Source of the DNA: Escherichia phage vB_EcoM_HZ_ZJUN4
Reading direction: 5' to 3' (one strand)
DNA length: 64,000 nt
Sequence record: PP216085
Numbering within the stretch: position 1 is the first letter of the stretch; each line of letters opens with the position of its first letter. Below the pieces are notes generated by a model. That model did no database searches. It was given only the letters and a program-made list of their open reading frames with translations, and was not told the DNA's origin. Positions 10,320 through 19,742 of this stretch are shown piece after piece. The translations under genes were made by a program, and so were the position numbers.

Positions 10320-11016
<697 letters not shown>

Positions 11017-11028
11017 TTTCACAAAGTT

Positions 11029-11058
11029 GTTTACACGCTGATGAGGTAGTGATACTAT
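11029..11058 (+). promoter_or_regulatory. early promoter (GTTTAC -35, GATACTAT -10)
   Basis: T4 early-promoter-like motif ACAAAGTTGTTTAC followed by TGATACTAT; same architecture recurs at least 14 times in the window. Confidence 0.6.
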
Positions 11059-11088
11059 TATCTCATCAAAATTAATTAGGAAAATAAA

Positions 11089-11376
11089 ATGAAAACATTT
11101 AAAGAATTTACTTCTACAACTACCCCGGTTTCTACCATTACCGAAGCTACTCTTACTTCTGAAGTTATTAAAGCAAATAAAGGACGAGAAGGTAAACCAA
11201 TGATTAGTCTGGTTGATGGCGAAGAAATCAAAGGTACTGTTTACCTAGGCGATGGGTGGTCTGCTAAAAAGGACGGTGCTACAATCGTTATCTCTCCTGC
11301 TGAAGAAACTGCGTTGTTTAAAGCTAAACACATTTCTGCGGCACATCTCAAAATTATTGCTAAAAATCTTTTGTAA
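11089..11376 (+). CDS. ipI: internal protein I-like capsid-targeted protein (95 aa)
   Basis: N-terminal capsid targeting sequence MKTFKEF and ITE/LTSE protease sites; cleavage after ITE would leave 76 aa, the size I recall for mature IpI. Confidence 0.75.
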   Translation: MKTFKEFTSTTTPVSTITEATLTSEVIKANKGREGKPMISLVDGEEIKGTVYLGDGWSAKKDGATIVISPAEETALFKAKHISAAHLKIIAKNLL

Positions 11377-11394
11377 TAAATATTTCACAAAGTT

Positions 11395-11424
11395 GTTTAC
11401 ATAGGGTTTTAGTTGTGATACTAT
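11395..11424 (+). promoter_or_regulatory. early promoter
   Basis: ACAAAGTTGTTTAC ... TGATACTAT, near-identical to the promoter at 11029. Confidence 0.6.
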
Positions 11425-11452
11425 TACCCTATCAACTACTGAGGAGAATAAA

Positions 11453-13160: not shown

Positions 13161-13236
13161 CGAGGCATAGCTCAGAAGGAAGAGCAAGGACCTTCTAAGT
13201 CCTAGGTCGTAGGTTCGATCCCTACTGCCTCGACCA
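13161..13236 (+). tRNA. tRNA-Arg (anticodon UCU)
   Basis: Acceptor CGAGGCA/TGCCTCG, anticodon arm AGGAC-CTTCTAA-GTCCT, T-arm GTAGGTTCGATCCCTAC, CCA. Confidence 0.8.
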
Positions 13237-13252: not shown

Positions 13253-13603
13253 ATGAAAGGTAATGTTTATTTAGTAGTTCATGATTTAACATTCTATTTT
13301 AATCACAATGACACTGTTATTTCTGAACGTGTAATTAATTTACTTTATCAGCATGCAGATTATGTTTATGTCGAAAACGAATACGGTCATTGGCAATTTC
13401 TCAAAAATCGTTCATTTGGTTTAGATGGTTACGAATACTTTGAACGTAAAGACCTTTTAGATAAAATTCCGTTATCTACACAATATCAAAATCATAAGTC
13501 TTTATATAAATGCCGTCCAATTCGAAATGCTGAATCTGCGTATGAAGTAATTGATTTATGGCGTAAACGTCGTGGACAGGTTGATGCTTTAAAAGAATAC
13601 TAA
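13253..13603 (+). CDS. hypothetical protein (116 aa)
   Basis: ORF with GTGAGGAAAA ribosome-binding site directly after the tRNA array. Confidence 0.6.
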   Translation: MKGNVYLVVHDLTFYFNHNDTVISERVINLLYQHADYVYVENEYGHWQFLKNRSFGLDGYEYFERKDLLDKIPLSTQYQNHKSLYKCRPIRNAESAYEVIDLWRKRRGQVDALKEY

Positions 13604-13914
13604 GAAACCGGGTCGCTACCGGTAAGTCGTCGGACTGATGTTCCCTGGGTAAGGAATTGTGTTAATAAATCTTTATGATTTGTTGATGCCCTCTTACATC
13701 ACAGCAGAAACGGCGCACCGAATTATCGATTCGAGGAAATATCTTTGCCGTAAGCCGAGTAGCGTTTTTGACGGAACGTTCGGATATGGTCGAGATATGG
13801 CCTTTTAAAAATATTAAGTAGCGTCAACTGCTTAATAACCGGGTTCGAATCCCGGCGTTTCGTACAAACACTTGCCTTAGCAGGTGGAACCCCGACAAGG
13901 TTGCCGCAAGGCTT

Positions 13915-13942
13915 AGCCCCGACCGAAAGGTTGGGGCTTTTT
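13915..13942 (+). terminator. intrinsic terminator hairpin (AGCCCCGACC-GAAA-GGTTGGGGCT + T-tract)
   Basis: GC-rich stem with GAAA tetraloop followed by TTTTT; identical copy at 14473. Confidence 0.7.
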
Positions 13943-13944
13943 AG

Positions 13945-13952
13945 TATAAATA
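13945..13952 (+). promoter_or_regulatory. late promoter TATAAATA upstream of ip-like gene
   Basis: Exact TATAAATA about 40 nt upstream of the ATG at 13992, directly after the terminator. Confidence 0.5.
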
Positions 13953-13991
13953 TAGTAGTGTATTAAATCACGAATTAAAACAGGAAATAAG

Positions 13992-14465
13992 ATGAAATCA
14001 TATGCTCAATTTTTAAATGAAGTGGTGTTAAATGAAGCATCCGCTTCAGATGTTCGCGCTGTAGCAACTGCTGCTATTAAAGCTGGTAAATATTCTTATA
14101 AAGATGCTTCTGACGAATCCCGGTACAAGTTCTACGACGATATGAGAGCTGAAGGCTTTGTGGGTAACTATGTTACCACCGCCTGGAAAAGTCTGGTTGC
14201 TACTGGTGCGGCTTTCGAAAAACCTTCCGGTAAACCTGCTCCTAAAGCAGATCCTAAAGCTGCACAAGAAAAAAATATTGTTAAAGGAATTATCGCTAAA
14301 TATGAAGCTATACTTAAAGAGCTTTTAGTAATTAAAACCGAAGGCCAAAAATTAGCCCGTGCCTATAGTTTCAAAGATAATCCACATGCTCATGACCTAG
14401 AGTATGTTGAAGACATCCAAAAAATTATTAAAGACCGCATTTGGTCTGCTAAACAAATCAAATAA
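13992..14465 (+). CDS. capsid-targeted internal-protein-like protein (157 aa)
   Basis: N-terminus MKSYAQFLNEVVLNE matches the T4 capsid targeting sequence pattern with LNE protease sites; basic Lys/Ala-rich body; flanked by identical terminators. Confidence 0.6.
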   Translation: MKSYAQFLNEVVLNEASASDVRAVATAAIKAGKYSYKDASDESRYKFYDDMRAEGFVGNYVTTAWKSLVATGAAFEKPSGKPAPKADPKAAQEKNIVKGIIAKYEAILKELLVIKTEGQKLARAYSFKDNPHAHDLEYVEDIQKIIKDRIWSAKQIK

Positions 14466-14472
14466 CATTCTT

Positions 14473-14500
14473 AGCCCCGACCGAAAGGTTGGGGCTTTTT
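14473..14500 (+). terminator. intrinsic terminator hairpin, identical to 13915-13942
   Basis: Same 34-nt sequence CTTAGCCCCGACCGAAAGGTTGGGGCTTTTTAGT as upstream copy. Confidence 0.7.
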
Positions 14501-14590
14501 AGTTTGAATCGCATAGAGAATGCTGTTACGGATAATAACAAAGTAATAAATAATTAATAACTGACCGATAAATTATTTCAAGGATTTTAA

Positions 14591-15154
14591 ATGAAAACCT
14601 ATGCCGAATTTTTAACCGAAGCAGCAAAATTACCATCTGAAGCAGAACTTACTAAAGTATTCTTCCAATTGGACCCAAAAGACCGTGGCGATTTTCTTAA
14701 GTGGAAAGCTAAAGCTATTGAAATGTATAACATTGATAATAGTTCTTTTACGATGAGTCAAGAAAATAAATTCAATAAAGCATTTTTCAAAATTTCTAAG
14801 AAACTGGCATCTGGCGCTCAGGTTCCTAAATCTGCCTTAGCTACTCCTGAACGTGCGCCTGTTAAAATTTCTAAGAATATGTTCGACACTAAAAAATACG
14901 TTAATGCTTTGAATAAAGCTCTTGATGCATTGGATGATGCAAAGAAGGCAGCCCGTGATCTTCAAGACGTGTACATCGATTTTGATCGTAAAACTAAAGG
15001 TTCTATTTCAAATAGCGAACGCAATAGTGTAAGCGTTTATTCTGATAGCCTTGACGTTCTTGGCGATGCGTATACTGAAATTAAAAATCGTATTAACACC
15101 GCATCTAAACTAAAAGCTGCCGCAGAAGCTATAATAGCTAAACTAGGTAAATAA
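14591..15154 (+). CDS. capsid-targeted internal-protein-like protein (187 aa)
   Basis: N-terminus MKTYAEFLTEAAK (capsid targeting sequence plus LTE cleavage site); Lys-rich helical body. Confidence 0.6.
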   Translation: MKTYAEFLTEAAKLPSEAELTKVFFQLDPKDRGDFLKWKAKAIEMYNIDNSSFTMSQENKFNKAFFKISKKLASGAQVPKSALATPERAPVKISKNMFDTKKYVNALNKALDALDDAKKAARDLQDVYIDFDRKTKGSISNSERNSVSVYSDSLDVLGDAYTEIKNRINTASKLKAAAEAIIAKLGK

Positions 15155-15163
15155 TTTTAAACC

Positions 15164-15188
15164 CCCTATCTAAATGATAGGGCTTTTT
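15164..15188 (+). terminator. intrinsic terminator hairpin (CCCTATC-TAAAT-GATAGGG + T-tract)
   Basis: Perfect 7-bp stem followed by CTTTTTGG. Confidence 0.65.
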
Positions 15189-15322
15189 GGTATCTAGGCC
15201 TTTCTGGACCTCTCTAAGAATCATTTAGTTTCTACCCTTTATAATATATTATCCTATCCTTTAATTGCCCCTCCCTGTCCTAGAATTCCCTAAAACTTTT
15301 TAAAAAATTTTTTCACAAAACT

Positions 15323-15354
15323 GTTTACATCCCCGTTCTTCCATGGTACTATAC
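15323..15354 (+). promoter_or_regulatory. early promoter with conserved leader (ACAACTATCAACTG)
   Basis: GTTTAC ... GGTACTATAC; promoter plus leader is near-identical to copies at about 29887 and 56973. Confidence 0.65.
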
Positions 15355-15947: not shown

Positions 15948-16541
15948 ATGAACACACTGAAGAAAATTGTTGATTTTATTCGCACTAAACTTGGTTCTGC
16001 AATGGCTAAAAATCTATCTGTTGAAGAACAGTATACTGCTGCAGCAGCAAAACTGCTTGATAAAATTAAAGACCTAAAAACTGCTTCTGTTAAATCTATT
16101 AATGAAGAAAAACGTATTCGTGAACTTATTGTTGAAAAGAATAAACAGGCTGAATCAAAAGAGCGTGAAATTCGCAAGCTTCTTTCCGAAGGTCAAGATG
16201 TAACAATGCATGCTAAACTTGGCTTGCTATATCGTCGAACAGCTGAACAGCTGACTACTAAAGCTGATGGGTATGCTGAAATGCGAATTGAAATCGCCAA
16301 GAAAGTAGTTGAGTTAGATGATGCTCGTCAAGAACTTGCAGTTAAATTGGAATATATCCGTGAAACTCGTGCGGCAAATGCCCTTGGAATTAGTACTGCT
16401 GATGATGTAGTTGAAATCGCAGCGCTAACTAAGGTTGATATTGAAGATACCCTTGCTCGAGTTGAAACCTTTAACGGTAATATTTCTGGGGTTGAAACCA
16501 CTTCTGCCGATGTTCAGGAATACATTAATTCTCTGAAATAA
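15948..16541 (+). CDS. coiled-coil protein, possibly PspA/IM30-like (197 aa)
   Basis: Almost entirely predicted helical, Glu/Lys/Arg-rich with amphipathic N-terminal helix; family assignment is a guess from composition only. Confidence 0.55.
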
Positions 16542-16581: not shown

Positions 16582-17190
16582 ATGAGAATGCAAAATGATT
16601 TCAATTCAATGTTTGAAGAGTTCCAAAGACATGTTGATGTTCCAGACCAATTACTAAATGCTCTTAAACGTATGGCAGAAGGACGTAATTACTATTGGGG
16701 CTCTTCGTATGAAACTGATGAAAGCCTTTCTGGAAGACTTTATAGAGGTAAAAAGTCTTTAATACGTCCTGGAATACTTATTAACAGTATTGAATCAATT
16801 CATTCATTGACATGTGATTTTGATGTTGAATTTACTGATTTCATTTCCCCTGAATGGACGGTATGCTATTTAAACGATGATTATGACTATCTTGGCATTT
16901 ATAGTTTAAGTGACGCGGGGTTTAGACGTAATTTACAAAAGTCAAATTTATTTTATATTGATACTACGGTAAAATTTCAAGGCAAGAAATATTTCTTTAC
17001 TCTTATAGTTGACTCTGAAACAAAATATGAAAATAAACGTATTCTTAGTAAAAAGAATATCTTGACTATTATTGATGATCTTTTTGATAAATTCGTGGAA
17101 AATCCTAATTTTGAAAGCGATTTATTATTAGAAAAATTTGTTAAGGAATGTAGAGAATATGTCAAAGCCATCACTATACCTTCCAAGTAA
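16582..17190 (+). CDS. hypothetical protein (202 aa)
   Basis: ORF following a hairpin; no recognisable motif. Confidence 0.6.
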   Translation: MRMQNDFNSMFEEFQRHVDVPDQLLNALKRMAEGRNYYWGSSYETDESLSGRLYRGKKSLIRPGILINSIESIHSLTCDFDVEFTDFISPEWTVCYLNDDYDYLGIYSLSDAGFRRNLQKSNLFYIDTTVKFQGKKYFFTLIVDSETKYENKRILSKKNILTIIDDLFDKFVENPNFESDLLLEKFVKECREYVKAITIPSK

Positions 17191-18332: not shown

Positions 18333-18863
<531 letters not shown>

Positions 18864-18867
18864 AGTT

Positions 18868-18897
18868 GTTTACTTTCTCCTAGAACTGTGATAGTAT
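18868..18897 (+). promoter_or_regulatory. early promoter
   Basis: AAAGTTGTTTAC ... TGATAGTAT. Confidence 0.6.
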
Positions 18898-18934: not shown

Positions 18935-19252
18935 ATGAAAACGTTTAAAGAATTTATTGCAGAATCTGCCCAAGGACAACGTGTAGAAGGCGGTTATATC
19001 TGGATTGAACAAGTTGAGCCGCCAAGTCGCACTTCTACAGGTAAATGGAAAATCACTGTTGATGGTCCTGGTGGTAAACGTAGGACTCTTAAAGAAATTA
19101 ACGGGTACTATGAAGAAGCTCTTTCTGACGCGGGTACTTATATGATGCAAATCATGATTAAAAACCCAGAAAATCGTTTTGCGGCTAGAGTTTTCCGCCG
19201 TATTGGAAATAAGCTTTATGATGCATATTCTAAAAACTTCCCTAAAGAATAA
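18935..19252 (+). CDS. capsid-targeted internal protein (ipIII/ipII position, 105 aa)
   Basis: N-terminus MKTFKEFIAE (capsid targeting sequence plus IAE protease site); located after e as the ip genes are in T4. Confidence 0.7.
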   Translation: MKTFKEFIAESAQGQRVEGGYIWIEQVEPPSRTSTGKWKITVDGPGGKRRTLKEINGYYEEALSDAGTYMMQIMIKNPENRFAARVFRRIGNKLYDAYSKNFPKE

Positions 19253-19268
19253 AAATTAAAGGATACAC

Positions 19269-19742
19269 ATGAAAACATATCAAGAATTTATTACTGAAGC
19301 AGCTATTAATTCTCAAATTATTGCTGAATCTTTTACTGATCTTTTGAAATTTAAAAAAGGACAGAAAATCACTGCTGTATTGGATGATGGTACAGAAGTT
19401 GAGATGGATGTACAGGGATATAATTATGCAGTAGATGGAAAACTGTATAATAAATCTCATGCTAAATTTGATTCATTTGACGACTTTGTTAATACAGTTG
19501 AAGATGAAAAAACTCGTCGATCCATTGCAACTGGTGATGCTAAGGTTCTTATGGCACATGGTCATGAACGCATTCGCGCTAAACAGAATAAAATGGGTGA
19601 AGATAATTTTGCATTAGTTGGTTATCAATCTGGTAAGCAAACTTATGGCTATCAGCGTACTGCTACCATGTATAATAAAAATGGTAAAATCGCTTTCGTG
19701 AATAGTAAAGGTTCTATTCAGTACGTTAAATCGTTCAAATAA
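19269..19742 (+). CDS. capsid-targeted internal protein (ipII/ipIII position, 157 aa)
   Basis: N-terminus MKTYQEFITEAAINSQIIAE with two protease sites. Confidence 0.7.
   Translation: MKTYQEFITEAAINSQIIAESFTDLLKFKKGQKITAVLDDGTEVEMDVQGYNYAVDGKLYNKSHAKFDSFDDFVNTVEDEKTRRSIATGDAKVLMAHGHERIRAKQNKMGEDNFALVGYQSGKQTYGYQRTATMYNKNGKIAFVNSKGSIQYVKSFK

Follow-up and report, generated by a model that had tools for sequence, protein, structure and literature searches.

A 558-bp repeat-bounded cassette between rnaC and e.8 of a T4-like coliphage carries a candidate internal protein gene

In our study, a stretch of 64,000 nucleotides (nt) of Escherichia phage vB_EcoM_HZ_ZJUN4 (sequence record PP216085), here called the window, was found to contain an open reading frame (ORF) of 157 amino acids (aa), ORF1, between two identical copies of a 34-nt terminator sequence. 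The source phage is a Tequatrovirus, a T4-like coliphage, and ORF1 is located between rnaC and e.8, outside both classical internal protein (IP or Ip) loci (57B-trna.4 and e-denV). The best explanation of the locus as a whole, which we hold with somewhat more confidence than doubt, is that ORF1 is a late-expressed protein of the Ip class that would be packaged in the head, would be injected and would likely act against host defence, and that its gene is carried in a repeat-flanked recombination cassette. The cassette and its left border contained the following features.

13606..13911, + strand: rnaD and rnaC (the T4 'species 2' and 'species 1' stable RNAs) with the 3' trailer, collinear with the annotated features of T4
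13912..13945, + strand: repeat copy 1, the intrinsic terminator of the tRNA/rnaD/rnaC unit (hairpin at 13915-13938 followed by T5; terminator scan and fold)
13945..13952, + strand: T4-type late promoter motif TATAAATA, 40 nt upstream of ORF1 (sequence, conserved in relatives)
13982..13986, + strand: ribosome-binding site AGGAA, 5 nt before the ATG of ORF1 (read from the sequence)
13992..14465, + strand: ORF1, 157 aa, candidate internal protein, starting MKSYAQFLNEVVLNEA (ORF list, PHROG match)
14470..14503, + strand: repeat copy 2, the terminator of ORF1 and right edge of the 558-bp cassette (exact repeat, terminator scan and fold)

Two exact copies of the 34-nt sequence CTTAGCCCCGACCGAAAGGTTGGGGCTTTTTAGT, and no more, were present in the window, both on the + strand (13912-13945 and 14470-14503). 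No further copies were found in the window at three or fewer mismatches, and 100 shuffles gave none either. A repeat search over 10 kb recovered the same 34-nt pair, with a spacing of 558 bp. In each copy, a GC-rich stem of 10 bp is closed by a GAAA loop and trailed by TTTTT, with a hairpin energy of -20.3 kcal/mol per copy (z = -3.6 and -4.8 against shuffles). This hairpin was found a single time in T4, 47-74 nt past rnaC, followed by TTTTTGGTATCTAAGCC..., with gene e.8 284 bp further on and no ORF in between; T2, like T4, contained a single terminator copy directly after rnaC and no ORF at the site. Because T4 has the hairpin once, after rnaC, copy 1 is read as the terminator of the tRNA/rnaD/rnaC unit and copy 2 as that of ORF1. 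A first-pass annotation of this DNA had reported two identical 34-nt terminator repeats around a 157-aa ORF starting at 13992, with the leader MKSYAQFLNE and LNE sites. Both copies proved to be exact, the 13915-14500 given there falling about 3 nt inside their true ends, and the ORF was present as described. The same annotation was silent on the identity of copy 1 as the rnaC/tRNA-operon terminator and on a second gene with a capsid targeting sequence (CTS) directly downstream, which occupies the right-hand part of the locus.

14591..15154, + strand: ORF2, 187 aa, with the CTS leader MKTYAEFLTE, an independent neighbouring cassette (ORF list, PHROG match, relatives)
15164..15188, + strand: third terminator, unlike the repeat, CCCTATCTAAATGATAGGG followed by CTTTTT, closing ORF2 (terminator scan, fold, relatives)

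The 3' end of the third terminator, GGGCTTTTTGGTATCT, recreates the T4-type right junction GGGCTTTTTGGTATCTAGGCC, which was found in the window only past this terminator (15164-15188).

The distribution of the two genes was surveyed by base-level mapping in fetched relatives. GenBank phages were used for this, as a repeat scan of IMG/VR gave only 6 loci. The 1.7 kb around the ORF1 locus matched about 760 GenBank phage records, nearly all of them T4 relatives of Escherichia, Shigella, Yersinia, and Salmonella; ORF1 was matched in 511, ORF2 in 164, and both in about 125 records (counts are approximate and come from BLAST summaries). All four possible states of the locus were found in the relatives, and every junction was inside the terminator.

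Locus empty: T4, T2, and PST
ORF1 only: slur13, EC128, and two IMG/VR contigs
ORF2 only: IME340, HY03, RB14, and ECO07P1
ORF1 and ORF2: the window, G50, SA21RB, Bas37/KarlGJung, and two IMG/VR contigs

In the genomes with ORF1 only, the T4-type flank came directly after copy 2, and in those with ORF2 only, a single repeat copy was followed by AGTTTGAATC, which is the flank of copy 2 in the window. Phage ECO07P1 was about 98% identical to the window over a 4.2-kb alignment, with one gap of exactly 558 bp at 13912-14469. It keeps one intact repeat, so that the missing segment equals one repeat plus the cassette, and recombination between the two repeat copies would be expected to leave just such a product. 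The earlier proposal that the gene could be gained, lost or swapped by recombination at the repeats is borne out by these junctions, and the comparison of T-even genomes did not find ORF1 to be a universal, syntenic gene without repeats.

The repeat copies themselves carried a possible trace of their exchange. In SA21RB, an identical G-to-A change was found in both copies, and in the Dhakavirus WG01 a diverged and co-diverged repeat pair, GGCCCTTCCGAAAGGTTGGGCC, brackets a two-gene unit (fetched segment 2781-4062); the shared change and the co-diverged pair suggest exchange between the copies. The WG01 unit contained an ORF1 homologue and a predicted membrane protein of 184 aa (phrog_2143), with a different terminator between them. 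In the Klebsiella Jiaodavirus KpnM6E1, the ORF1 homologue was again found after the tRNA cluster, preceded by a hairpin-TTTTTAGTATAAATA element on a different stem; no direct repeat flanks this homologue, and the hairpins differ on each side. The Mosigvirus ST0 contained an ORF1 relative of 208 aa with the late promoter at the same place. From KpnM6E1 and ST0, the arrangement of terminator, late promoter and CTS gene is seen to be conserved across genera of Tevenvirinae. Judging from these genomes, bracketing by a repeat belongs to the lineages of Tequatrovirus and Dhakavirus, and the unit is older than the repeat.

That ORF1 lies in a recombination cassette is therefore strongly supported by these comparisons, and we consider it very probable. 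The 558-bp cassette, consisting of late promoter, ORF and terminator, would have been inserted at the terminator of the tRNA/rnaC operon, and such an insertion would account for a 34-bp direct repeat on both sides. Homologous recombination between the two copies would delete the cassette, and in a co-infection, recombination of a cassette-bearing genome with an empty one would transfer it. For recombination in T4, a homology of less than 50 bp is reportedly enough (Singer et al., 1982, as cited in PMC2839356).

The N-terminus of ORF1 contained the second line of evidence.

13992..14036, + strand: CTS-like propeptide MKSYAQFLNE/VVLNE/A, the slashes marking two L-x-E candidate gp21 sites (residue match, homologues)

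The residues Y4, F7, L8, and E10 of the leader match all four experimentally critical CTS positions of the IPIII type. Residues 1-10 of IPIII are enough for incorporation into the head, and such a leader loads foreign proteins into T4 heads; by mutagenesis, residues 4 and 7 set targeting and residues 8 and 10 set processing (PMC9026906). The prohead protease gp21 cuts after L/I-X-E (PMC9026906), and the two L-x-E sites of the ORF1 leader end at residue 10 (F-L-N-E) and residue 15 (V-L-N-E), respectively. The rule [YF]4-F7-[LI]8-E10 matched only 4 of the 478 Met-initiated candidate starts in the window, and all four were in IP-type loci (ORF1, ORF2, and the ORFs at 18935 and 19269 in the e-denV locus). 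The annotated internal head proteins of T4, PST, WG01, RB69, and Bas37 contained the same leader type. Homologues of ORF1 from Mosigvirus, Dhakavirus, and Jiaodavirus, only 40-74% identical to it, kept the leader as MKTYNEFLTE, MYTFNEFLAE, MLKFNEFLAE, and MKFKEFLAE, and its retention at such divergence argues that selection acts on the leader peptide. The cleaved form of ORF1 would be 15.7-16.3 kDa with an isoelectric point (pI) of 9.2-9.3, basic like the T4 IPs, which are about 8-20 kDa (PMC9026906). At the level of sequence, the capsid-targeting-like N-terminus proposed in the first pass thus stands, and membership of ORF1 in the Ip class is well supported and probable. The 10 N-terminal residues would bind the protein to the scaffolding core of the prohead, gp21 would be expected to cut after L-N-E at residue 10 and/or 15, and the mature protein, of some 16 kDa, would be packaged alongside the DNA and enter the host by injection in the following infection.

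The motif TATAAATA starts at the last base of repeat copy 1, forming a composite terminator/late-promoter element. It was kept at the same place in G50, SA21RB, slur13, EC128, WG01, ST0, and the IMG/VR loci, and, past an unrelated hairpin, in the Klebsiella phage KpnM6E1. The motif was not enriched in the window (10 found against 10.6 expected), which counts against a promoter, and the call is therefore based on its position and its conservation in relatives. The motif named as a late promoter in the first pass is thus present, and ORF1 is a putative late gene.

ORF1 was assigned to phrog_2280, a family of unknown function (E = 1.7e-54). In 467 of its 511 phage records the match was full length, and in the 60 of these 511 records that were examined the homologues were labelled 'hypothetical protein' or 'Phage protein' or were unannotated, never internal protein. 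No Pfam match was found for ORF1, including the IPI_T4 domain PF11634. An exhaustive HMMER search of 1.84 billion representatives gave 8 relatives, all apparently phage-derived fragments or variants. The AlphaFold (AF2) model, with a predicted local distance difference test (pLDDT) score of 73, was that of a basic, helical protein of two domains.

14040..14204, + strand: N-terminal three-helix domain, residues 17-71 (AF2 pLDDT 80-92)
14217..14252, + strand: disordered Pro/Lys/Ala-rich linker, residues 76-87 (pLDDT <50)
14253..14453, + strand: C-terminal long helical hairpin, residues 88-154 (AF2 model)
14269..14275, + strand: A7 homopolymer in the ORF1 coding sequence just past the linker, the apparent origin of truncated alleles

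The ratio of nonsynonymous to synonymous substitution (dN/dS) of ORF1 was 0.15-0.18, which is purifying selection and marks ORF1 as a real, constrained gene. Its synonymous divergence from relatives was 3-5 times that of the neighbouring genes. The identity profile against most relatives, including G50, fell to 71-81% at the nucleotide level only in the N-domain (13989-14189), with a synonymous divergence (dS) of about 0.5, whereas the leader, linker, C-terminal half and flanks were 92-100% identical; identity recovered to 92-98% from about 14189. Since the divergence is confined to the N-domain, this domain is read as an exchanged module, with the leader on one side and on the other the linker, which is invariant in the family (invariant columns G80-K94), and the linker is the apparent right-hand breakpoint of the exchange. 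The N-domain is the most conserved module across genera, yet it is allelically mosaic within Tequatrovirus. The same N-domain was found joined to other, unrelated C-termini in the database clusters P0013 and P0015, which agrees with module exchange. At the homopolymer, EC128 contained A8 and an ORF of 97 aa, and the truncated database clusters P0007-P0009 (93-111 aa) diverge at the A7 tract. This variation is either slippage-prone inactivation that spares the CTS and N-domain, or homopolymer sequencing error.

The only experimental data found concern a homologue. Phage Bas37 (KarlGJung, MZ501089) contained both genes, bas37_0244 being 86% identical to ORF1 and bas37_0243 being of the ORF2 type. 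In the supplement of the HIDEN-SEQ study (bioRxiv 10.1101/2025.11.20.689424), bas37_0244 is listed as non-essential, with 29 of 34 TA sites hit, and it is not named as a hit in the main text. Such a result would suit an Ip, a non-essential protein of narrow specificity, and gives no positive evidence for an anti-defence role. The tables of the same supplement class bas37_0243 as 'Essential' (1 of 48 TA sites hit, mean 0.2 reads), and the paper does not mention it. The homologue gene (fetched Bas37 segment 3029-3592) is absent from T4, T2, slur13, and most relatives, being present in 164 of about 760 records. The essentiality may be real and depend on the background, or it may be an artefact of the stock or of the mapping. 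According to the supplement, bas37_0240 (homologue of e.6; 15948-16541 in the window) was depleted on uropathogenic CFT073 with a log2 fold change of -6.49 and adjusted p = 0, and bas37_0239 (homologue of e.5; 16582-17190 in the window) was also significantly depleted on CFT073 (adjusted p = 0). The genes e.5 and e.6, just downstream of the cassette, may thus be conditionally required.

The Ips provide the closest comparison. Previous studies reported that T-even phages encode many Ips recognised by the signal sequence alone (Repoila et al., 1994, as cited in PMC12373910), and that conserved regulatory sequences surround the IP genes, for which shuffling was proposed (Repoila et al., 1994, as cited in PMC4122927 and PMC2839356). 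Ip1, Ip2, and Ip3 are inhibitors of GmrSD type IV restriction enzymes, each acting on an enzyme of its own (PMC12373910), and the CTS-bearing, IpVI-like Bas37_0260, found by HIDEN-SEQ, inhibits McrBC (bioRxiv 10.1101/2025.11.20.689424). The T-even Ips (including Ip4-Ip10, IpIV-VI of PST, and Ip7 and Ip9 of WG01) are, like ORF1, small and basic with a leader and an L/I-x-E gp21 site. They share only the leader sequence, are non-essential and patchy in close relatives, and lie in cassettes bounded by repeated regulatory DNA, and ORF1 is alike in these respects. It differs from the named Ips in that its mature part has no homology to any of them, its locus is a third one, and its family is conserved across genera, unlike most Ips. 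The T-even Ips are CTS-targeted, gp21-processed and injected proteins, whereas ORF1 is recognised as a probable Ip from its leader sequence. The identity of ORF1 with one of the named Ip4-Ip10 was considered and rejected, the annotated Ips of PST, WG01, RB69, and Bas37 being in the classical loci and different from ORF1. In the curated records of RB69, PST, WG01, and SA21RB, Ips were named only in the two classical loci, and the ORFs between rnaC and e.8 were unnamed. No sequence matching ORF1 was found in the supplements of Silas et al. Bas37_0260 and ORF1 are both orphans that share only the CTS with the T4 IPs, and the phage that carries the Bas37_0260 cassette also has homologues of ORF1 and ORF2; however, Bas37_0260 has a demonstrated target, and bas37_0244 had no conditional phenotype in two comparisons of the same screen.

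The flanking element was also compared with published ones. Arbiol et al. (2010) described IP-associated elements as early promoters with weak AT-rich stem-loops and stated that IP genes are absent outside the two loci 57B-trna.4 and e-denV (PMC2839356), and the PeSLs of Comeau et al. (2014) are built on sigma-70-like early promoters (PMC4122927). As in these elements, a stem-loop and promoter were found here on both sides of a small accessory ORF, and the ends of indels fall within it; the mechanism proposed is shared as well, namely homologous recombination across less than 50 bp. The element of ORF1 differs in being a strong GC-rich intrinsic terminator (-20 kcal/mol) with a late promoter motif, whereas the published ones carry early promoters and the IP-associated stem-loops are weak. 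The placement of Ips in two loci is a positional habit and not a functional requirement, and recognition of the rnaC-e.8 genes as probable Ips amends the published restriction of IP genes to two loci. The freshness implied in the first pass did not hold, since IP cassettes with a shared leader and flanking repeats were already published in 1994 and Ips are established inhibitors of type IV restriction (2007-2025). The principle having been known for thirty years, the gain is incremental; the novelty is modest and comprises the third IP-type locus, the terminator/late-promoter joint, and a family not annotated as internal protein in the records inspected.

Injected ORF1 would most likely neutralise a host defence, as do Ip1, Ip2, Ip3, and Bas37_0260. 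This function is a reasonable extrapolation, and we put its chances a little short of even. Several results weigh against it or against the wider reading. In the HIDEN-SEQ supplement, the fitness of bas37_0244 on K-12 compared with CFT073 and CFE299 changed by a log2 fold change of only -0.11 and -0.30 (adjusted p = 1 for both), these being 2 of the 6 Bas37 comparisons and the hosts covered a limited set. Inhibition of host defence by ORF1 found no link by homology or fold: PADLOC and the PDB sequence profile gave no informative match and no connection to a known inhibitor, Foldseek of the model against PDB gave no similar fold and against BFVD only uncharacterised homologues (one from Serratia phage PS2), and no similarity to IPI was seen by sequence or fold. 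A third L-x-E of ORF1, at residue 110, is located within the helix predicted for the C-terminal part. No virion proteomics was found in the literature for any phage bearing ORF1, the fPS-phage paper being without proteomics. The family stays at one locus across several genera under purifying selection, and such conservation, less like the extreme diversity of classical Ips, could indicate a more general role. The repeat core was identical in 5 of 10 ORF1-bearing loci and differed at 1-2 positions in the other 5.

The main rival of an anti-defence function is a role in the virion itself. ORF1 might be packaged through its CTS but serve as a basic DNA-associated internal protein or as a helper of scaffolding-core assembly, like IPIII, without which heads are assembled at half the rate (PMC9026906). 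The basic pI with the Pro/Lys-rich linker, the single locus across at least four genera of Tevenvirinae whose DNA modifications differ where known (PMC8594841), the low dN/dS, and the absence of a conditional phenotype of the Bas37 homologue on two clinical strains would all suit such a role. Heads nevertheless assemble normally in T4, T2, PST, and roughly a third of the related genomes, where ORF1 is absent, the homologue is fully dispensable in Bas37, and an N-domain with mosaic alleles is more in keeping with a gene of host interaction; on balance we regard a virion-intrinsic role as rather unlikely. It is improbable that ORF1 is not packaged at all, the leader DNA being a recombination joint like the terminators and the protein acting in the infected cell late in infection. 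The leader is conserved as amino acids at the four mapped positions even where nucleotides and neighbouring residues have changed, and ten leader residues suffice for loading of T4 heads, as cited above. These observations outweigh the recurrence of the leader DNA at IP genes (repeat family D1), the mosaic breakpoint of the N-domain at the leader, and the lack of packaging proteomics, all of which would suit an unpackaged protein.

The duplicated terminator could also be explained as a functional necessity of each transcription unit, with no role in mobility and with presence and absence arising from unrelated deletions. Both copies are indeed strong terminators sited where terminators are needed, and in the Klebsiella phage the homologue is flanked by two unlike hairpins without any repeat. 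However, identity at 34 of 34 bases, including the flanks outside the stem, is not expected from convergence, the sampled indels all end in the repeat (one being of exactly 558 bp), and the changes shared between copies in SA21RB and WG01 point to exchange, which makes this explanation very improbable. Returning to ORF1 as a candidate packaged and injected protein, a wider proposal is that the rnaC-e.8 interval is a third IP locus of Tevenvirinae, organised by a terminator/late-promoter joint and holding a family (phrog_2280) of long standing in several genera, made up of injected two-domain proteins that swap their N-domains, and that its members are more than mere accessories. The last point is drawn from the ORF2-type gene, which behaves as essential in Bas37 though most relatives lack it. 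This proposal is tentative and somewhat doubtful; if true, it would imply a background-dependent requirement, for example the neutralising of a host or phage-encoded function.

Host immunity is confronted with injected internal proteins before any other phage product, and the four Ips with known targets all block type IV restriction enzymes, each very specifically. About 500 of the sequenced T4-like phages have an ORF1 homologue, and many of these phages are candidates for therapy; regarding the homologues as probable Ips widens the set of candidates for orphan defence systems. The 558-bp cassette, with natural plus and minus isolates, offers a ready isogenic-like comparison.

ORF2 was predicted to have the same architecture as ORF1 and shares its PHROG. 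Tandem paralogy of the two was rejected, as BLASTP and shuffled Smith-Waterman alignment showed only the 10-residue leader to be shared (z = 0.15), and intermediate sequence connects ORF1 with the 208-aa ORF of ST0, not with ORF2. The shared PHROG and similar predicted architecture suggest at most a distant relatedness. Among its 164 phage records, ORF2 was 95-99% identical in 158, far more uniform than ORF1. The ipI gene of the window was found at 11089-11376 (PF11634, E = 7e-54), bracketed by 54-nt direct repeats (11016-11069 and 11382-11435, 78% identical) that contained a T4 early promoter and a stem-loop, and by their sequence these repeats are the classical IP-associated element. The early-promoter core TTTCACAAAGTTGTTTAC recurred upstream of e.8 (15307-15328) and of the CTS ORF at 18935 (18852-18873). 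Five CTS proteins in three loci were thus present within 9 kb of this phage, two of them in the e-denV locus.

18935-19252: CTS ORF of 105 aa, phrog_3966, unknown function, e-denV locus
19269-19742: CTS ORF of 157 aa, 100% identical to IpIV of PST, e-denV locus

To the left of the cassette, the tRNA cluster of the window contained 10 tRNA genes, the last ending at 13236, compared with 8 in T4. The T4 homing endonuclease gene segB was absent from this cluster. One further ORF was found between tRNA-Arg and rnaD, where T4 has nothing.

13253-13603: ORF of 116 aa, phrog_3355, unknown function

No Rfam family was reported at the gathering threshold for the rnaD/rnaC stretch, the ten tRNAs being the sole reports. 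This stretch closes the tRNA transcription unit and borders the cassette on the left, and it was 100% identical to that of phage G50.

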